A DNA stretch of 64,000 bases from Spirochaetales bacterium (GTDB lineage Bacteria > Spirochaetota > Spirochaetia > SZUA-6 > RPPD01): assembly GCA_016929065.1 (NCBI GenBank), contig JAFGJO010000055.1:401-64400 (forward strand), written 5' to 3'. The position numbers and the translations under genes are program-made. Below the pieces are notes generated by a model that was not told where the DNA came from, searched no databases, and worked only from the letters and a program-made list of their open reading frames with translations. The stretch's first letter is position 1. Every line of letters starts with the position of its first letter. Below, piece after piece: positions 16,131-25,014 of the stretch.

Positions 16131-16159
16131 TTGACATATCACTAAATTATCATTATTTT
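16131..16159 (+). promoter_or_regulatory. Putative sigma70 promoter of the phd-relE module
   Basis: TTGACA, 17 nt, TATTTT. RBS gagagg follows. Confidence 0.3.
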
Positions 16160-16181
16160 GATATTGAATGAGAGGTTGTTA

Positions 16182-16448
16182 ATGCCCAAAATAAGGCCGA
16201 TTTCAGATTTACGGAACAATTTTACACAGTTATCAAAAAGTCTCCACGAAGAGAATGAGCCGATTTTCCTCACAAGAAATGGTGTCGGTGACATAGTTGT
16301 TATGAGTATTTCATACTATGAGAAATTATTAGCCAAATACGAGGTTTATCAAAAATTAGATGCTGCAGAAACTGAAATTAAAGATGGGGCACTTGGAAAA
16401 GATTATAAAAGCGTAATTAGAAAAGCCAAAGCAAAAATTAATGCCTAA
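16182..16448 (+). CDS. Phd/YefM-family antitoxin
   Basis: MPKIRPISDLRNNFTQL... resembles YefM. Overlaps the downstream toxin by 8 nt. Confidence 0.8.
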   Translation: MPKIRPISDLRNNFTQLSKSLHEENEPIFLTRNGVGDIVVMSISYYEKLLAKYEVYQKLDAAETEIKDGALGKDYKSVIRKAKAKINA

Positions 16449-16749
16449 GAAAAAATATTCAGTTTTGATTTATCCACTTGCAGAGCAAGATATGGATGAG
16501 ATCATATTGTTTCTAAAAGAACTTTCATTGAAAGGGGCCAATGCTTTTTTAGATAAACTATCATCAAAACTGAACAAGCTTGAAGAATATCCAGAAATGT
16601 TTCCCCTCGTTAAGGATGAAAGACTTTCTGAAAAAGGATATAGAATAATTCCAGTTGATAATTACATCGTGTTCTACGTAGTAATGAAAAAAAATGTACA
16701 AGTCAGAAGGATGATTTATGGAAAAAGAAATTATTTCGATTTCCTGTAA
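16441..16749 (+). CDS. RelE/ParE-family toxin
   Basis: About 100 aa with a typical ParE/RelE C-terminal pattern. Coupled to the Phd gene. Confidence 0.8.
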   Translation: MPKKKYSVLIYPLAEQDMDEIILFLKELSLKGANAFLDKLSSKLNKLEEYPEMFPLVKDERLSEKGYRIIPVDNYIVFYVVMKKNVQVRRMIYGKRNYFDFL

Positions 16750-16830
16750 ATCTGCTGAGCACTATTGCGCCAAACGGGAAGCGCCAGGCTCTCGAAGCAT
16801 AACGCTGCTTGATGTTTAATAACCAATAAA

Positions 16831-16873
16831 AAAAACCGTCTGTGTACTTGAAAGCACAGGCGGCTTTTTATTG
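16831..16873. terminator. Bidirectional terminator between convergent toxin-antitoxin modules
   Basis: aaaaaaaaccgtctgtg-tacttgaaag-cacaggcggcttttt. Confidence 0.55.
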
Positions 16874-16919
16874 TCAGCGCAGCGTCAAGGCTTCTATTCG
16901 TTGGGTGAAGTGCGCTGAT

Positions 16920-17312
16920 TCAAAGGAATTTCAATCCATGCTTTTTGTAAAGGTCCAAATTTTCATCCAGACTGAGTAATGTGAAATCATTTTGAATTGC
17001 TTGCCAAATAATTGCCCTATCAAATGGATCTTTGTGTTCTATGGGAAGCTTGTAAAATGAAATAAGCTCTTGATTCTCATTTTTTTTGCAAACAAAAAAA
17101 CTATTTTCAACTTCATTGAAAAGTTGTTCTGGATTGATACCTTTAATATGAAGTTTCCCTATGCCGTATTTTATTGATATTTCCCATAAGCTAAATTGAC
17201 TATAATAAATTGTATGATCATTGTTTAAGAGAATCTTTTGGAATTTAGGTTTCAGCTTCTCAGGATTGGTAAAGGACCAAATCAAAATATGAGTATCGAC
17301 AATAAAATTCAT
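16920..17312 (-). CDS. vapC: PIN-domain VapC toxin
   Basis: N-terminal FIVDTHILIW PIN motif. About 130 aa. 4-nt overlap with the upstream antitoxin. Confidence 0.8.
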   Translation of the reverse strand: MNFIVDTHILIWSFTNPEKLKPKFQKILLNNDHTIYYSQFSLWEISIKYGIGKLHIKGINPEQLFNEVENSFFVCKKNENQELISFYKLPIEHKDPFDRAIIWQAIQNDFTLLSLDENLDLYKKHGLKFL

Positions 17313-17548
17313 GAAGTCAATAACTCGTCATCGGTAATAATGAAATCTTTGGAAAAGCTTACTTTTACCTTTCCCTTGAGGGATCCAAGTTTCCTGTTCT
17401 GGTTTTTCTTATATTCACTATAAGGAATAATGACGGCTATTGTTTCTTTTTTACGACCGAATGAAATAGCGATTTTATGTCCAGATTCAACTTCTTTTAA
17501 AAGAGAAGAAAGATGAGATTTTACTTCAGCAACCGGAATAGTTTTCAT
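17309..17548 (-). CDS. Phd/YefM-type antitoxin partner of VapC
   Basis: 79 aa. MKTIPVAEVKSHLSSLLKEV... Operonic. Confidence 0.75.
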   Translation of the reverse strand: MKTIPVAEVKSHLSSLLKEVESGHKIAISFGRKKETIAVIIPYSEYKKNQNRKLGSLKGKVKVSFSKDFIITDDELLTS

Positions 17549-17688
17549 ATGATAAAGTTAGCATAAGTGACCAACATAGTCAAGTATTATTTTCGGCCCC
17601 AGGAATTGCATACAACGTTCAGTGTTGGCGCCCGATCAGGGCGTGGAGGTTTACACAGTATTGAAGCTGCGGCGGGTAATAATAACGT

Positions 17689-17722
17689 TTGACAATACTA
17701 ACGTTAAGCAGTATTATACATT
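17689..17722 (+). promoter_or_regulatory. Promoter with overlapping palindromic operator for higBA (probably leaderless)
   Basis: TTGACA (17689-94), 17 nt, TATTAT (17712-17). Inverted repeat aatact..agtatt around the palindrome aacgtt. ATG at 17723. Confidence 0.45.
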
Positions 17723-18025
17723 ATGCTACAGTCTTTTCAAGATAAAGAAACGGAAAAGGTATGGAATCAAGAATACTCAAAAAAGTTACCAAGGGATATT
17801 CAAAGGGTTGGGTTAAGAAAACTGTTTATGCTGAACAGGGCAATAGATTTGGATGATTTGAAAATACCACCATCAAATTGCCTGGAAAAGTTGAAAGGCA
17901 ACAGGAAGGGGCAATTTAGTATCAGAATTAACCAGCAATGGCGAATATGTTTTAATTGGAAGGACGGGGAAGCATACAAAGTTGAGATTGTAGACTATCA
18001 TCAGGAGGATTGTAATGAAAGATAA
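17723..18025 (+). CDS. higB: HigB toxin (RelE/ParE superfamily)
   Basis: KGNRKGQFSIRINQQWRICFNW motif. Confidence 0.8.
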   Translation: MLQSFQDKETEKVWNQEYSKKLPRDIQRVGLRKLFMLNRAIDLDDLKIPPSNCLEKLKGNRKGQFSIRINQQWRICFNWKDGEAYKVEIVDYHQEDCNER

Positions 18026-18314
18026 AATACCAAATATATATCCAGGAGAAATCCTCGAAGAAGAGTTTATAAAGCCGATGAATATATCAGCCTACAGGCT
18101 TGCTAAAGAAACACATTTACCCGCAACAAGAATATCAGAAATATTGCACAATAAGCGGAAGATTACAGCAGACACGGCTTTAAGATTTTCAAAATATTTT
18201 GGTAATAGTCCGGATTTCTGGCTAGGAATACAAATCGAGTATGATTTACGCGAAGAGATGGCAAAGAATAAAAAAGAAATTAATCAGATAAAGAAAATCG
18301 AAATAGCTGTTTAG
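18015..18314 (+). CDS. higA: HigA antitoxin (XRE helix-turn-helix)
   Basis: Overlaps higB by 11 nt. Helix-turn-helix. Confidence 0.85.
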   Translation: MKDKIPNIYPGEILEEEFIKPMNISAYRLAKETHLPATRISEILHNKRKITADTALRFSKYFGNSPDFWLGIQIEYDLREEMAKNKKEINQIKKIEIAV

Positions 18315-18382
18315 GAATTAATTCCGGCTATAATTTCAGATTACTCCTGGTATACCCACAACTCTTCAATTAAAAAACGAAT

Positions 18383-18622
18383 ATGGAGGTAAACTATGAG
18401 AAAAAACATTATGATTTTTCAAATGCAATAAAAAACCCTTATATAAATAAACTCAAGAAGCAAATATCTATTCGATTGGATAATGATATCTTGGAATATT
18501 TTAAAGAATTATCAGAGGAGATTGGTATCCCTTATCAAAAGTTAATAAACTTTTATCTTGCCGAATGTGCTAGTAAACGTATCAAACCAAAGCTTGTCTG
18601 GAATAATAATGCAAAGGCATGA
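18383..18622 (+). CDS. BrnA-like antitoxin, N-terminally short, with no BrnT partner
   Basis: KNPYINKLKKQISIRLDNDILEYFKELSEEIGIPYQKLINFYL matches the BrnA C-terminal region as I remember it. The GGAGG sits better for an 11-codon out-of-frame ATG at 18397. Confidence 0.55.
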   Translation: MEVNYEKKHYDFSNAIKNPYINKLKKQISIRLDNDILEYFKELSEEIGIPYQKLINFYLAECASKRIKPKLVWNNNAKA

Positions 18623-18639
18623 CATCTAACGGTTGAGAG

Positions 18640-18795
18640 TGAATCTAAAGCTACAGGATATCGATTCAAAAAACAAGACCATTACTGTCAGGCAGGGGAA
18701 AAGATATAAAGACAGGCAGATTGTTTTTTCCGATACGCTGTATGGTATTCTGAAAGAGTACTACCGTATAGCCTCATTGAATCGGCAAAATTAAA
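18640..18795 (+). pseudogene. Tyrosine-recombinase (XerC/D, integrase) C-terminal fragment
   Basis: Translates to ...ITVRQGKRYKDRQIVFSDTLYGILKEYYR, a degraded copy of the recombinase GKGxKxRxVPL motif. 51 codons with no start. Confidence 0.4.
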
Positions 18796-19181
18796 CAACT
18801 GAATCCGTTTGAATATTTATATTACATGTATTCGAAAATACCGTACGCCAAAACACAGGAAGATTTTATTTCATTGTTATCGTTCAATCTTGATCCTGAA
18901 AAGATCAAGGGAGGGTAAGATTTAGCGCTTACAAACCTTTGATCGCAGTGTCTTTTTGATACTGCTGGGTAATTGTTTGATGCATAACATCCTCCTTGAA
19001 TTTGTTTCAAGGAGAATTCCAATCGATTTTAAATTTATTCATAAAAATGTCGCAAGATAAGCCGCCGCCGGCAGGCGGTTTTGTTCAACGGCAAGCGCCA
19101 GGTTGGAGCCGAAGGCGGAACGCAGGACGCGCAGTTAGGCGATGTATTTGATTTTTAAAACACAATATTATTTAACACTAA

Positions 19182-19976
19182 TCAAAAAGGTATACCATCA
19201 GGCTCTTTAGTTTTTGACTCATTATGAAATGACAGGAGATTCTTGTTGTTTTGAATCCATTGTATACCGTTTTTAGTAACTACATATGCTTTGTATTCTT
19301 CATTATTATATTCAGTATCAGTCAATATCTTAGTTGCTAAAAAACCTTTTTCTTCCAATGCTGTCACACCAAGAGCTACAGCAATATCATTAAAATTTAA
19401 ACTGAGCATTTTTTGTTTGAGCTGATATTGAGATATACCTCCATCCATTGTTGTCCAATATGCAAATGCGGTAGATAGAATTGCAACCTCATAATCTTTG
19501 AGATCAGATTGTTGTTCAGTTTCCGGTTTTAAAGTTTGAACACTAGACATTCTTGAGTAATCTTTTAACTCATTTTTAGTCCATTTTATGATATTTTTTT
19601 CTAATTCATCATATCCGCTTCTGGAATCAGTACGGTAATATATTACTGGTCTATGTTGAATATCAAAAGGCAGACGACTTCTTTTTGCTTTATCGCATAA
19701 AATAACAGTGGGTCTAAAAAGAGCCAATGCATATCCTAATTCTAACCATACATTTGGATTGTCTTCACTAACTTCGGCGATACAAATTGCTGCAGAACGA
19801 ATATTTGATTCGATTTTTTCAATTATAGGATTTAAACCTAAAATATCGTCTGCTCTTTGAGGATCAACATTTGCCTTTAATAATGCAGGTTTAATAGTTT
19901 CTATATATCTTCTATCATAAGGCCCATTATCAAAGTGTTGGATAACAAAACAAAGTGGTTTGGTATTTTCACTCAT
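19182..19976 (-). CDS. Nucleoside 2-deoxyribosyltransferase-like domain fused to a C-terminal winged-helix-like domain
   Basis: ATG at 19976 with aaaGGAG 5 nt upstream (the track's longer start is TTG). NDT-like beta1 CFVIQHFDNG and catalytic-region pattern NVWLELGYALALFRPTVIL. AT-rich context. Confidence 0.65.
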   Translation of the reverse strand: MSENTKPLCFVIQHFDNGPYDRRYIETIKPALLKANVDPQRADDILGLNPIIEKIESNIRSAAICIAEVSEDNPNVWLELGYALALFRPTVILCDKAKRSRLPFDIQHRPVIYYRTDSRSGYDELEKNIIKWTKNELKDYSRMSSVQTLKPETEQQSDLKDYEVAILSTAFAYWTTMDGGISQYQLKQKMLSLNFNDIAVALGVTALEEKGFLATKILTDTEYNNEEYKAYVVTKNGIQWIQNNKNLLSFHNESKTKEPDGIPF

Positions 19977-20364
19977 ATCATGCTCCTTTAACAATAATTA
20001 TTATTGCTTTAAAATAACATCAAACATATCACCCATCTCCCGGTATCTGCACAAATCTTTACCTGAAAATCATACTCAGATTAACTATCCCCTGCAAGCA
20101 AAAAAAAAGTGGTTATAAATTGGTATTTACGTGGATGATTGAAAGTGTTCCCTAACAAATTATGGAACACTTTCAAACCAATAGGAGTGACCTCAAGGCC
20201 ATTTAAACCGAGCTCTTGAATTTACAGCCAGCTTGACCGCATGGTATTGTATGGATATCAGTTATCCCGTCTCGAACCAGTTTCGAGGCTATTCGCGAAA
20301 ACGCGCGCGATTGAACGCGTGCGTGGGTATTCGTAGTACACTCATCCTGTCTCTTTGTTGCTGT

Positions 20365-21110: not shown

Positions 21111-22901
21111 ATGGCCAAGAAACACAATTACGACGAAAGCAAGGTCAAAACCCTTAGTTCTCTCGAACATATCCGTCTTCGCTCCGGAATGTATATCGGG
21201 CGGCTGGGTGACGGCTCCAATATTGATGACGGTGTTTATATTCTTTTAAAGGAAGTCATCGACAATTCGGTGGACGAATTTATCATGGGGCATGGAACAA
21301 AAATACACATTTCCATCGATGGCAAGCTGGTCAAAGTGCGGGATTACGGACGCGGCATTCCCCTCGGCAAGGTAATTGACTGTGTATCAATTATTAATAC
21401 CGGTGCAAAATACAATGACGACGTGTTTCAGTTCAGCGTCGGATTAAACGGGGTGGGAACCAAGGCGGTCAATGCGCTTTCAAAACACTTTCGGGTGGTT
21501 TCTGTCCGTGACGGGAAATATTTCGAAGCCGTTTTTTCAAAAGGAAAATTGAAAAACAAGGCTGAGGGAACAGCATCAAAAGATAAAGCCGGCACCTATG
21601 TCGAGTTTGAGCCGGATCCGGAAATATTTGGGGAATTCACATTCAACATGGAATACATTGACCAGCGGATGTGGAATTACGCGTACCTTAATTCCGGATT
21701 GACCATGGTCTTCAACAAACAGGAGTACCAGTCCCAGCGGGGCCTGTACGACCTGCTTGAGTCCGAGGTCGGCGATGAACCCGTATACGATATTTCCTAT
21801 TATAAGGGCGACCATATTGAGTTTGCCTTTACTCACACCCAGGCATACGGGGAGACGTACTTTTCGTTTGTAAACGGCCAGTTTACCTCGGACGGCGGGA
21901 CGCATTTAAGCGCGTTCCGCGAGGGGCTCCTGAAGGGTGTCAACGAGTTTTATCAAAAGTCGTATTCCGGAATCGATGTGCGTGAGGGCATCGCCGGTGT
22001 TATATCGGTAAAACTGAAAAGTCCTGTTTTTGAAAGCCAGACAAAAAACAAGCTCGGCAATACCGAAATCCGATCATGGATTATCAATGACACCAAAGCA
22101 GCAGTGGTCGATTTTCTGCATAAAAACAACCTTGCCGCCAAAAAACTCGAAGAGAAGATCGCCAACAATGAGAAACTCCGCAAGGAACTGAATGTTGTCC
22201 GCAAGGAAGCAAAGGACGCGGCCAAAAAAATAGCGCTTAAAATCCCCAACCTCAAGGACTGCAAGGATCACCTTGGAGACAAAAACGGCGAGTACTCCAT
22301 GATTTTCATTACTGAAGGCCAGTCCGCTTCGGGGTCGATGGTTTCATGCCGCGATGTGTACACCCAGGCAATTTTTTCGCTCAAGGGCAAACCGCAGAAC
22401 ATGTTTGACCGCAGGCAGGCGGAGATCTATAAAAATGCCGAGCTGTACAACATGATGATGGCGCTCGGGATCGAAAACGATATCGAAGGCCTGCGGTATG
22501 CCAAAATTGTCATCGCGACCGATGCGGACAACGACGGCTTTCATATCAGAAATTTGCTGATGACCTTTTTCCTGAACTTTTTCGAGGAACTGGTGGTTGC
22601 ACAGCGGGTCTATATTCTTGAAACCCCGCTGTTCCGTGTCCGCAATAAAAAAGAAACCGTGTACTGTTACAGCGAGAAAGAACGCGATGAAGCAACCCAA
22701 CGGCTCGCAAACCCGGAAGTAACCCGGTTCAAGGGACTGGGAGAGATCAGCCCGAACGAGTTTGGACAATTTATCGGCGATAATATACGGCTGGTGAATG
22801 TGAATATCAAAACGATGAAGGAAGTTCCGGGTATCCTGGAATTCTATATGGGAAAAAACACTCCTGAGCGCAGGGAATATATAATGGAGAATTTGATCTG
22901 A
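21111..22901 (+). CDS. parE: Type IIA topoisomerase subunit B (short ParE/GyrB-like, 596 aa)
   Basis: GHKL ATPase and TOPRIM motifs (GLNGVGTKAVNALS, ATDADNDGFHI). Confidence 0.9.
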   Translation: MAKKHNYDESKVKTLSSLEHIRLRSGMYIGRLGDGSNIDDGVYILLKEVIDNSVDEFIMGHGTKIHISIDGKLVKVRDYGRGIPLGKVIDCVSIINTGAKYNDDVFQFSVGLNGVGTKAVNALSKHFRVVSVRDGKYFEAVFSKGKLKNKAEGTASKDKAGTYVEFEPDPEIFGEFTFNMEYIDQRMWNYAYLNSGLTMVFNKQEYQSQRGLYDLLESEVGDEPVYDISYYKGDHIEFAFTHTQAYGETYFSFVNGQFTSDGGTHLSAFREGLLKGVNEFYQKSYSGIDVREGIAGVISVKLKSPVFESQTKNKLGNTEIRSWIINDTKAAVVDFLHKNNLAAKKLEEKIANNEKLRKELNVVRKEAKDAAKKIALKIPNLKDCKDHLGDKNGEYSMIFITEGQSASGSMVSCRDVYTQAIFSLKGKPQNMFDRRQAEIYKNAELYNMMMALGIENDIEGLRYAKIVIATDADNDGFHIRNLLMTFFLNFFEELVVAQRVYILETPLFRVRNKKETVYCYSEKERDEATQRLANPEVTRFKGLGEISPNEFGQFIGDNIRLVNVNIKTMKEVPGILEFYMGKNTPERREYIMENLI

Positions 22902-22902
22902 T

Positions 22903-25014
22903 ATGGCATATGTAAAAACTCTTTTTGATACCAATTTTCTGGAATACGCTTCTTATGTTATCAAGGACCGGGCTATCCCCCATTTGAATGATGGGCTCAA
23001 ACCCGTGCAGCGGCGTATCCTGCATTCCCTGCTGGAAATGGATGACGGAAAATTCCATAAAGTGGCGAATGTTGTCGGACACTGTATGAAATATCACCCG
23101 CACGGCGATGCATCCATTTATTCGGCGCTCGTTGTGTTGGCAAACAAGGAACTGTTTATCGACCGGCAGGGAAACTTTGGAAATATTTTTACCGGTGATG
23201 AGGCATCCGCTGCCAGGTATATTGAATGCCGAATCCTTCCCCTTGCAAAAAAGATACTGTATAACCCGGAGATTACACGGTATGAGGATTCTTATGACGG
23301 CAGGAACAAAGAGCCGGTCACCTTCCCGGCCAAGGTTCCGCTGGTTTTGGTCATGGGAGCAGAAGGCATCGCAGTCGGGATGTCCACTAAAATACTTCCT
23401 CATAACTTTGTGGAGGTGCTCGAAGCGGTAAAAGGCGGCCTGCGGGGGAAAAAAACCTTGCTTTATCCCGATTTCCTCACAGGGGGCGAAGTGGATGTGT
23501 CGGACTATCAGGACGGAATGGGTAAAGTTCTTGTCCGCGCAAAACTGGATGTTTCTGATCCGAAGCGCATCCTTATTACCGAACTCCCGTTCGGGTCCAC
23601 GACAGAATCGCTGATAACCTCGATAGAAAATGCCGCGAAAAAGAACAAGATCAAGATTGCCGGGATAAATGATTTTACTACTGACAAGGTGGAAATCGAG
23701 ATCAAACTCCAGCGGGGCACCTATACCACAGAGGTCGTTGATGCACTCTATGCGTTTACCGACTGCGAGATGTCGATATCAGTGAACTCACTTATTATAG
23801 TAGAAAAAAACCCGCGGCTCATGACGGTGAGTGAAATTATTGCCCATCACAGCCAGCGGCTTTTGAAGATTCTTTCAGCAGAACTCAAAATCGAAGAGGG
23901 AAAACTGAAAGACAGGCATCATGCGCGGACGCTTGAGCAGATATTCATCCAGGAACGCATTTATAAAAAGATTGAGGACAAAAAGACACAGGCGGGTGTG
24001 GTGAAAGCGGTATTGGACGGATTAAAACCGTTTGCGAATGTTATAAAACGCGAGGTGATCGAGGAAGATGTCGAGCGCCTGTTAAAGATACCGATCCGAA
24101 GAATTTCTTTATATGATATCAACAGGGCGCGGACCGAACTCGAAGAAATCGAAGCCAGACTGAAGGAAGTGCGCAGGCACCTGAAAAATATTATTGAGTA
24201 TGCAGAAGGATTTCTGGACGAGGTGATCCGCGATTATGGAGCACAATTCCAGCGGAAGACCGTGATCACCAGTTTTGAAAAAATCGATGCCCGCGAAGCC
24301 GCTGCAGCACAGCGGAATCTGGATCTGCGGTATGACGAGGAAACCGGGTATATCGGAACCGGTGTCAATACGGGGCGGCTGTTGTTCAAGGTTTCCTCCT
24401 ATGACAGAATTCTGGTGATACGCAGGACCGGTGCGTACTCGGTGATTGATGTACCGGACAGGCTGTTTGTCGACAAGGGAATGTATCACTGCGTGATGGC
24501 CGACAAGGACGAGATGGCCAGAACAGTGATCTCTGCGGTATATAAAAACAAAACCACCGGGCATCCGTATATAAAACGCTGTATCATCGACAAGTTTATC
24601 ATCGGCAAAGGGTACACTCTTGTCGGCGACGAGTTTCAGATGCTCTGTCTGACTGCACAGAAAGACGGGTTTGTTCGTGTACAATATCTTCCGAAACCGC
24701 GGGTAAAAATGACCGAGCAATATTTTAAAATATCCAGCTATCTGGTGAAGGGGATCAAGGCCGGCGGCGTGCGGCTGTCGACCCGCGAGGCAAAGGATGC
24801 AGGTATTGTCGACAGGGAAAAAAAGACTGAAAACACAACCGCTCCCGCGGGAAAAACAGCAGTAAAAAATGTTTCCTTAAAAAAGAAACCGGTTAAAAAA
24901 AAGAAGTTTGTGAAAAAGTCAGCCGGAAATAAAAAGGCTGCTGTGTCAAAAAAGCAGCCGGCAAAAAAATCAGGGCTGCTGCAGAAGATGACAAAAAAAA
25001 GAAAGAAACAATAA
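22903..25014 (+). CDS. parC: Type IIA topoisomerase subunit A (ParC/GyrA-like) with Lys-rich C-terminal tail
   Basis: GLKPVQRRILHSL and HPHGDASIY motifs. Starts 1 nt after the B-subunit stop. Last about 100 aa are K-rich. Confidence 0.9.
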   Translation: MAYVKTLFDTNFLEYASYVIKDRAIPHLNDGLKPVQRRILHSLLEMDDGKFHKVANVVGHCMKYHPHGDASIYSALVVLANKELFIDRQGNFGNIFTGDEASAARYIECRILPLAKKILYNPEITRYEDSYDGRNKEPVTFPAKVPLVLVMGAEGIAVGMSTKILPHNFVEVLEAVKGGLRGKKTLLYPDFLTGGEVDVSDYQDGMGKVLVRAKLDVSDPKRILITELPFGSTTESLITSIENAAKKNKIKIAGINDFTTDKVEIEIKLQRGTYTTEVVDALYAFTDCEMSISVNSLIIVEKNPRLMTVSEIIAHHSQRLLKILSAELKIEEGKLKDRHHARTLEQIFIQERIYKKIEDKKTQAGVVKAVLDGLKPFANVIKREVIEEDVERLLKIPIRRISLYDINRARTELEEIEARLKEVRRHLKNIIEYAEGFLDEVIRDYGAQFQRKTVITSFEKIDAREAAAAQRNLDLRYDEETGYIGTGVNTGRLLFKVSSYDRILVIRRTGAYSVIDVPDRLFVDKGMYHCVMADKDEMARTVISAVYKNKTTGHPYIKRCIIDKFIIGKGYTLVGDEFQMLCLTAQKDGFVRVQYLPKPRVKMTEQYFKISSYLVKGIKAGGVRLSTREAKDAGIVDREKKTENTTAPAGKTAVKNVSLKKKPVKKKKFVKKSAGNKKAAVSKKQPAKKSGLLQKMTKKRKKQ

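Follow-up and report, generated by a model that had tools for sequence, protein, structure and literature searches.

The window analysed here is a stretch of 64,000 nucleotides (nt) of contig JAFGJO010000055.1 from a Spirochaetales bacterium, and the gene in question lies on its minus strand, with its start ATG at 19976 and its stop at 19182–19184. The open reading frame (ORF) is intact, and its product is identical to the hypothetical protein JW904_12890 (P0001) of a Spirochaetales metagenome-assembled genome (MAG). The protein joins an N-terminal domain of the nucleoside 2-deoxyribosyltransferase (NDT) superfamily to a PadR-like winged helix and ends in a tip like that of SSB, a single-stranded DNA-binding protein (Table 1). 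We read the family as a single-gene module of conflict with phages or mobile genetic elements (MGEs) that is wired into the network of SSB-tip-binding proteins, and consider it more likely to serve defence or superinfection exclusion than anti-defence; this reading is given a probability of about 50%. Our confidence is high for the architecture, moderate for the role in conflict, and low for the specific mechanism.

The most distinctive feature of the protein is its conserved SSB-like C-terminal tip, which an earlier note made from the sequence of this DNA alone had overlooked. In SSB, at least 17 proteins of replication, repair, and recombination dock on the C-terminal tip. The consensus of the last seven residues of the family, (L/F)-D-D-D-I-P-F, is that of the SSB tip, in which DDDIPF is the conserved hexapeptide (SSB-Ct) that mediates the essential protein interactions of SSB (PMC5872125; see PMC10018359). 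An ending in [IVLFM]PF was present in 110 of the 120 closest homologues and in 109 of the 142 full-length representatives at 50% identity (~77%), and 103 of these 109 carried at least two acidic residues just upstream. Position counts were taken over the 118 representatives ending in PF. Besides P at −2 and F at −1 (118 each), the counts were I 76, L 17, and V 11 at −3, D 74 and E 28 at −4, D 78 at −5, D 58 at −6, and L 21 and F 8 at −7. The tip is preceded by a linker that extends 8–45 residues past a conserved GxxW motif after the winged helix and is rich in S, P, K, D, and E. This linker varies in both length and sequence, whereas the tip is kept. Subfamilies from Acidobacteriota, Burkholderiales, Myxococcota, and Beijerinckiaceae, which are only 30–37% identical to the window protein, also retain the tip, with endings that include IIDDDIPF, FDDEIPF, and SDDDIPF. 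Among the named matches, IPF or VPF closes the proteobacterial proteins, and DLPF closes the two from the FCB group (Ignavibacteria and Flavipsychrobacter). No tip-like ending was found in 515 unrelated ORFs of related loci or in any other long ORF of the window, and relatives whose similarity is limited to the N-domain end differently and do not have the tip. The full-text literature searched, whose coverage was incomplete so that an earlier description is possible, contained no report of an SSB tip on a non-SSB enzyme.

Natural variants of the ending occur as well. Subgroups that replace the tip were seen among P0126, P0131, P0155, P0156, P0163, P0258, P0331, and P0385; one of them has a basic, proline-rich RPPK(E/Q)PRF ending and another ends in …DPFADE, and such variants could reveal the purpose of the tip. 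The QHR motif of the N-domain does not track the presence of the tail: 76 long sequences with no tail or a variant tail keep QHR. This comparison carries little information and is confounded by phylogeny.

The assignment of the N-terminal domain is supported by profiles, alignments, and structural models. Pfam Nuc_deoxyrib_tr (PF05014) matched the window protein with an E value of 1.8e-4 (22.1 bits; gathering score 28.8), and many of the more distant relatives have precomputed PF05014 matches. When searched against PDB sequences, the window protein itself matched Rcl/DNPH1 only (E ~0.4), and a profile of 41 close homologues matched Rcl with E 0.017. A profile of 74 sequences, with members down to 28% identity, matched Rcl (E 0.0018), human DNPH1 (0.07–0.13), and BlsM (0.42). 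Three HMMER alignments placed E79 on the catalytic Glu of Rcl and E56 on Rcl D69 (equivalent to human D80), with the NVWLELGYALAL stretch aligned to the Rcl catalytic stretch GVGYELGRAVAL. Among the 74 sequences, C9, F10, Q13, R23, P30, R41, I55, C65, N73, P74, N75, W77, E79, G81, P103, F104, D105, and Y114 were invariant. The aromatic-E-x-G catalytic motif of the superfamily and its substrate-binding position six residues upstream are present in this set as W77, E79, G81, and N73. The hallmark motifs of the family are AE(V/I)S(E/T)DNPNVW(L/Y/F)ELG(Y/F)A and (F/L)PFD(I/V)QHR, and in the latter Q107, H108, and R109 are nearly invariant.

A first AlphaFold model, made from a shallow alignment, had a predicted local distance difference test (pLDDT) score of ~60 in the N-domain; the model used instead was built on the alignment of 74 sequences and has a pLDDT of 90.9 and a predicted template modelling (pTM) score of 0.82. 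In the latter, the domain adopts a flavodoxin-like three-layer alpha/beta fold, for which the top Foldseek matches in the PDB were human DNPH1, MilB, BcmB, and a cyanobacterial NDT (probability 1.0, E 6e-5 to 8e-4, target-normalised TM 0.5–0.78); the SARM1 TIR domain appeared at rank 50. Among the viral models of BFVD, the best match was a ‘CMP/hydroxymethyl CMP hydrolase’ (2e-9), a CAP12/Pycsar TIR protein came second (1.5e-7), and NDTs were also matched. The PADLOC model ‘Effector TIR’ (PDLC00733) matched the window protein with E 1.7e-7 and all 74 of the relatives, the best with 3.5e-12, while the matches of Pfam TIR_2 (E 0.064) and CAP12-PCTIR_TIR (E 0.2) to the window protein both fell far short of their cut-offs. 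Judging from sequence and model together, the domain is a member of the NDT superfamily with a predicted intact catalytic centre, and it stands between the NDT/DNPH1 enzymes and the TIR-like effectors. N-glycosidase catalysis is its probable activity.

These results agree with the earlier note in its description of an NDT-like N-terminal half with a catalytic E-x-G-x-A region, followed by a winged helix, and the Foldseek comparison of the two halves that it had suggested gave NDT-type matches for the first and winged-helix matches for the second. Its SLOG-type label found no support: no LOG, DprA, or SLOG family was found in Pfam, among the PDB-profile matches, or among the best 50 Foldseek matches. 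The Gly loop that it had placed after the CFVIQHF strand is likewise absent, since strand 1 and the following loop read P-L-C-F-V-I-Q-H-F-D-N-G-P-Y-D-R-R-Y in the window and CFVIQxFDxGxYDxRY in the family consensus.

Two observations concern the use of this domain elsewhere. Four family members (P0334, P0339, P0275, and P0361) have 90–170 extra N-terminal residues without a Pfam match before the NDT-like domain, which may be true fusions or mis-called starts. Plasmid proteins from Rhizobium, Vibrio, Pseudomonas, and Agrobacterium (H23–H39) carry the N-domain at their N-terminus at ~30% identity and are annotated as ‘TRAFs-binding domain-containing protein’; in these, the catalytic module is reused with a different, sensor-like C-terminal region.

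In the model, the C-terminal half consists of three helices followed by a two-stranded wing, with a pLDDT of 88–98 over residues 151–250. Foldseek matched it to PadR, LmrR, MarR, and DnaD-N with a probability of ~1.0, and the 74-sequence profile reached the PadR-like TA0346 (E 0.003) and SarX (0.028) in the PDB. The net charge of this domain is −4 in the window protein and −6 as the family median, and only three positions are conserved as K or R. Because the winged helix is net acidic, a role as a simple DNA binder is doubtful, and a role in protein interaction appears at least as likely.

The family is large, mobile, and without a fixed partner gene. An HMMER scan of 1.84 billion representatives at 50% identity yielded 16,535 matches at E ≤1e-3, 3,763 at ≤1e-10, and 343 at ≤1e-30, and the top 150 matches were mostly full-length proteins of 250–275 amino acids (aa). 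Close homologues, 55–68% identical, were found in Gamma-, Beta-, and Delta-proteobacteria, Ignavibacteria, and Spirochaetales. Such identity across phyla, together with the patchy distribution, indicates horizontal transfer. When the ORFs of 36 loci were clustered all against all, no conserved partner emerged: the largest shared neighbour family occurred in three loci, and 130 flanking genes belonged to 116 Pfam families. A minority of these neighbours are conflict or MGE genes, namely three DNA methylases, three ResIII, two integrases, two TIR, two ParE, and a YhcG nuclease. As no neighbour is conserved and the sites, chromosomal islets among them, vary, the gene is an autonomous single-gene unit, as the earlier note, which also asked for a check of conserved partners, had proposed, and the homologues are not confined to housekeeping surroundings. 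Membership of the gene in a type II toxin-antitoxin (TA) system was rejected, as there is no conserved small partner next to it and the surrounding TA modules are complete pairs themselves.

Full-length, tip-bearing members were also found on eight IMG/VR viral contigs. In L053, the gene has a Mu G-like gene on one side and the head protease gene on the other, with portal and F genes upstream and major head and sheath genes downstream; L049, L052, and L054 probably hold it in the same slot, to judge from a similar ORF layout or a near-identical protein. In Mu-like Pseudomonas phages, the slot between G and the protease is the anti-CRISPR region (PMC3993853). In the P2-like contig L050, the gene sits on the opposite strand between tail-fibre and baseplate/sheath genes, and an accessory/defence hotspot has been described within the P2 tail genes (PMC13586616). 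In L048, it lies 2.5 kb from the portal and large terminase genes, a site consistent with the cos-proximal gpA–gpQ hotspot, which carries antiviral systems (PMC9122126); the assignment is tentative because the contig ends at the gene. In general, P2-like hotspots mostly hold antiviral systems (PMC9122126, PMC13586616). Cousins that have only the N-domain are opposite-strand morons in the early or lysogeny regions of temperate Staphylococcus and Streptococcus phages; the one in Streptococcus phage Javan37 is encoded in the lysogeny region and shares its strand with the repressor. Placement in the lysogeny region is typical of exclusion genes expressed by the lysogen. As a separate observation, a co-oriented 264-aa ORF without a PHROG match (L050 6816–7610, plus strand) follows directly 3′ of the member in the same opposite-strand insertion and may be another cargo gene or a partner specific to this lineage.

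In the mechanism that we propose, the N-domain would cleave the N-glycosidic bond of a nucleotide, either NAD+ or a (deoxy)nucleoside monophosphate ((d)NMP), and thereby deplete or alter a nucleotide pool, as the NDT-like effectors of type II retrons and TIR-like effectors do. Targeting or gating would fall to the winged helix together with the SSB-like tip. By docking into the pocket in which a DNA-processing protein of the host or of a phage receives the SSB tip, the tip would place the enzyme at replication or recombination complexes or release it from an autoinhibited state. The tip may act as bait, recruiter, or autoinhibitor. What makes a conflict module a reasonable reading is the effector layout of type II retrons combined with the trigger of DRT10, which is proposed to be a phage SSB-like protein with an FDDDIPF tip that, as its authors suggest, interferes with host ExoI (bioRxiv 10.64898/2026.04.29.721553). 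Defence is preferred over anti-defence because P2-type hotspots carry mainly antiviral systems, chromosomes hold the majority of the copies, and the lysogeny placement of the cousins fits exclusion. A bolder form of the proposal, to which we give a rather small chance, is that of a ‘baited’ immune enzyme, in which the tip, perhaps with the acidic winged helix, decoys phage proteins that need the host SSB tip. Its targets would be recombinases of the RecT/Red-beta/Erf type or phage helicase, primase, or exonuclease modules, and once the tip was captured, the N-glycosidase would be set free or assembled, leading to destruction of NAD+ or (d)NMPs and abortion of the infection. If true, such a bait would be a new sensing principle, the mimicry of a host interaction-hub peptide fused directly to an effector.

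Several points count against a conflict module wired to SSB-tip binders. The tip of the window protein, EPDGIPF, is degenerate and less acidic than the consensus: it keeps I-P-F, but its final seven residues include a single Asp (at −5) and a single Glu (at −7). About a quarter of the long members have no tip or carry variants such as PK(E/Q)PRF or DPFADE. A simple bait model is complicated by the SSB-tip binders of the host, which one would expect to engage the tip of the family at all times. The score of the window protein is under the Pfam gathering cut-off for NDT, and the GSIRGG phosphate-binding loop of DNPH1 is absent from the family, the equivalent stretch being Q-x-F-D-x-G-x-Y-D-x-R-Y; therefore, the substrate cannot be deduced from DNPH1. 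Many flanking genes are ordinary metabolic genes, a picture that annotated contigs repeat, and restriction-modification, TA, integrase, and TIR genes make up a minority of the 130. Neither PADLOC nor NCBIfam has a model of the family, the weak ‘Effector TIR’ domain match of PADLOC aside, and no experiment or curated model links the family to defence; the full-text literature searched, with incomplete coverage, held nothing relevant on the family or on PF28206/Vpar_1526. Since anti-CRISPR genes are what the Mu-like slot is best known for, the copies on phage contigs could help the phage to counter the immunity of its host. Taken together, the defence role suggested by the earlier note is plausible on account of the phage accessory hotspots and the moron cousins and is weakened by the lack of a PADLOC model beyond the faint TIR match, an outcome of the check that it had recommended, by the metabolic neighbours, and by the Mu slot, while its alternative of nucleotide signalling found no specific support.

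The same phage copies lead to the alternative that the enzyme serves counter-defence or host takeover by destroying an immune signalling nucleotide or rebalancing pools for the phage, while its tip titrates or hijacks the exonucleases and helicases that are SSB partners in the host, and that the chromosomal copies are remnants of decayed elements. Four related IMG/VR contigs with the gene in the slot between Mu G and the head protease, the anti-CRISPR locus known from that slot in Pseudomonas Mu-like phages (PMC3993853), the phage ‘CMP/hydroxymethyl CMP hydrolase’ as the best viral fold match, and the FDDDIPF kept by phage SSB-like proteins, for which the DRT10 authors propose an interface with host factors (bioRxiv 10.64898/2026.04.29.721553), are all in line with this. 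However, most members found come from bacterial contigs and have no phage gene less than 8 kb away, the P2-like hotspots are mostly antiviral (PMC9122126, PMC13586616), and the Javan37 cousin is placed as exclusion genes are. We consider a phage-serving role unlikely, while ranking it above the other alternatives. Next to it, with a slightly lower chance, comes an accessory enzyme of genome maintenance without a role in conflict, that is, a DNPH1-like sanitiser of the (d)NMP pool or an enzyme of base excision that the tip couples to proteins of repair or replication. The closest folds (DNPH1, MilB, and BcmB) are indeed (d)NMP N-glycosidases, and contacts within the replication and repair interactome run through the tip motif; moreover, the Stenotrophomonas gene lies 26 bp after a PF06189 5′-nucleotidase gene and near nfi and mfd, and an Ignavibacteria MAG has tag and ada within 7 kb. 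But these repair-gene neighbours are confined to single lineages, and a maintenance role fits poorly with a patchy distribution resembling horizontal transfer, the lack of a conserved operon partner, the members in phage hotspots and in a TA island, and a DNPH1 phosphate-binding loop that is not conserved.

The tip itself could have another meaning. The [DE][DE][IVL]PF ending might be a peptide for self-interaction or autoinhibition, or a degradation tag, resembling SSB by convergence; it would contact the protein's own conserved basic patch (R22, R23, R41, R88, K98, R101, H108, and R109). The protein is acidic overall, yet its N-domain has an invariant basic cluster, and the pLDDT of the tail rose from <50 in the first model to ~60 in the better one. 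Acidic tails that fold back on basic sites are also common, as in T7 gp2.5, T4 gp32, and SSB. On the other side, the match to SSB-Ct spans seven positions, including the hydrophobic residue at −7 and the same I/L/V and D/E alternatives, and the QHR motif does not follow the presence of the tail. Self-binding and partner-binding are, besides, compatible, and the tip of SSB does both. A tip explained by convergence appears improbable to us, more so than a maintenance role. Least probable is a ligand-sensing transcription factor with an NDT-like nucleotide sensor and an operator-binding winged helix. It would fit the PadR/MarR-like C-domain, as these families are mostly transcription factors, but the winged helix is net acidic with three conserved basic positions only, no neighbouring target gene is conserved, the SSB-like tip would be left without a role, and the invariance of the full catalytic loop argues for an enzyme.

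If the reading as a conflict module wired into the SSB-tip network is right, its meaning goes beyond this gene. The SSB tip has so far been treated as a property of host and phage SSBs, and its presence as the conserved ending of a large family of non-SSB enzymes suggests that conflict systems plug into the SSB interactome. The family may also help to explain how effectors that combine an NDT-like domain with a winged helix are controlled.

Table 1. Features of the gene, its product, and the neighbouring low-GC DNA, in window coordinates
Feature	Position	Strand	Basis or remark
Complete ORF, 264 aa + stop codon	19182..19976	-	Translation; 100% identity to P0001
Shine-Dalgarno AGGAG, 6 nt 5′ of ATG	19983..19987	-	Read from sequence
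NDT-superfamily alpha/beta domain (DNPH1/MilB-like, TIR-like), aa 1–118	19623..19976	-	
Putative catalytic loop S-E-D-N-P-N-V-W-L-E-L-G, aa 70–81	19734..19769	-	E79 aligns with the catalytic Glu of Rcl/DNPH1
Second conserved motif L-P-F-D-I-Q-H-R, aa 102–109	19650..19673	-	
Long connecting helix, aa 119–145	19542..19622	-	Model H119–144, pLDDT mostly >85
PadR-like winged-helix domain, aa 146–250	19227..19541	-	Foldseek, profile, model
Low-confidence linker and C-terminal tip, aa 251–264 (…NESKTKEPDGIPF)	19185..19226	-	
GC-rich hairpin, terminator-like on both strands, ~100 nt past stop	19062..19079	.	
Phd/ParE TA pair	16158-16749		
PIN/Phd TA pair	16920-17548	-	
HigB/HigA TA pair	17723-18314		
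Orphan BrnA/CopG antitoxin	18383-18622		
Integrase (tyrosine-recombinase) fragment, 53 aa	18633-18794		

The ATG at 19976 is preceded by the ribosome-binding site that the earlier note had reported, and it fits the homologues, which start 7–10 residues ahead of the CFVIQ strand; an alternative start, TTG at 19994, lies upstream of the AGGAG and is less likely. The 390-nt gap 5′ of the gene contains a 17-nt inverted repeat, nearly perfect and closed by a 4-nt loop (TTGAAAGTGTTCCCTAA / TTATGGAACACTTTCAA, 20139–20176), which could be the terminator of the upstream gene, a small ORF of 164 aa without a Pfam match, or an operator.

The AT-rich context with TA genes and recombinase remnants that the earlier note had described was recovered. 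The GC content is low at 16–20 kb, 0.34–0.37 versus ~0.44–0.48 in most flanking 1-kb bins, and the gene is situated at the edge of this stretch. Three type II TA pairs, each complete, share 2.6 kb of the low-GC DNA (16158–18794) with an orphan antitoxin and a fragment of an integrase. A 17-nt GC-rich direct repeat, (C/A)AACGG(C/G)AAGCGCCAGG, occurs in exactly two copies in the 64 kb (16772–16788 and 19086–19102, plus strand), with none expected from shuffled sequences. The two copies flank the block of PIN/Phd, HigBA, the orphan BrnA antitoxin, and the integrase fragment and look like att-type repeats of a decayed integrative element inserted between Phd/ParE and the gene studied here, which lies just outside the right copy. 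An integron cassette was rejected: the RYYYAAC and GTTRRRY-like heptamers in the downstream GC-rich element are not complementary, the downstream DNA folds no better than shuffled sequences (z 0.2–0.65), and there is no family of repeated attC-like sites. A tRNA-linked island was rejected as well, as there is no tRNA gene between 12 and 24 kb of the window, and an Rfam scan of 15–21.5 kb gave matches at chance level only.

Two further observations were made on neighbourhoods. In Stenotrophomonas maltophilia (contigs L037–L040; L037 8001–8840), the member follows the co-oriented PF06189 5′-nucleotidase gene after 26 bp, close to His_Phos_1, endonuclease V (nfi), and mfd, and the arrangement may be a lineage-specific two-gene nucleotide-degrading unit; its product has a ‘faint’ precomputed match to Pfam PF28206 (Vpar_1526). 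On the plus strand of the window, a GyrB/ParE-like gene (596 aa, 21111–22901) is adjacent to a GyrA/ParC-like gene (703 aa, 22903–25014), both named from reading the translations only, and the 703-aa protein ends in a long stretch rich in lysine (…KKKPVKKKKFVKKSAGNKKAAVSKKQPAKK…), an unusual feature in a topoisomerase subunit.

Compared with known systems, the family resembles each of four groups in part. As in bacterial and phage SSBs, a disordered linker leads to an acidic tip with I/L/V-P-F as its last residues, and the family consensus (L/F)DDDIPF equals the …DFDDDIPF of Escherichia coli SSB (PMC5872125). It is not an SSB, because the oligonucleotide/oligosaccharide-binding (OB) fold is absent from the model and all searches; there is no sign of single-stranded DNA binding, and the body is an enzyme domain with a winged helix. 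TIR-like effectors such as CBASS Cap12 and Pycsar PycTIR belong to the same fold superclass and have the catalytic Glu at the equivalent position, but they rank below NDT-type enzymes in the Foldseek search, and no cyclase or other signal-generating partner is near the genes studied here. The best fold matches are DNPH1/Rcl, MilB, BcmB, and BlsM (E ~6e-5 to 3e-4, TM 0.6–0.78), and the DNPH1/Rcl group, including BlsM, gave the only PDB sequence-profile matches for the N-domain. The catalytic Glu and the upstream acidic residue align with those of DNPH1/Rcl, and an ‘AEV(S/T)’ strand before the catalytic loop is common to both. In contrast, the position of the DNPH1 catalytic Tyr appears as an invariant Cys in the family, in a by-eye comparison of sequences only; these enzymes are stand-alone domains without a winged helix or tail, and the missing phosphate loop means that the protein is not a DNPH1 orthologue.

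The closest counterpart in architecture is the effector of type II retrons (II-A1/II-A3; Retron-Eco1/Ec86 and Retron-Sen2), in which an NDT-like domain is likewise followed by a C-terminal winged helix (PMC7736814). In these systems, the NDT-like domain is a toxic anti-phage effector of the N-glycosidase type, and the Ec86 effector depletes adenine nucleoside derivatives (bioRxiv 10.1101/2023.08.16.553469). Despite the shared layout, neither a reverse transcriptase gene nor msr-msd was found beside the gene in the 36 loci or in the window, and no reverse transcriptase family is among the recurrent neighbour families. The PADLOC model NDT_II-A matched only one of the 74 family members (E 0.0025), and no retron effector was among the best 50 Foldseek PDB matches listed or the profile matches to the PDB. 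The retron effector binds multicopy single-stranded DNA (msDNA) via basic surfaces, whereas the present family is acidic, and an SSB-like tip, which is not reported for retron effectors, is present here. The family is thus not a retron member but a retron-independent counterpart of the effector architecture that combines an NDT-like domain with a winged helix.

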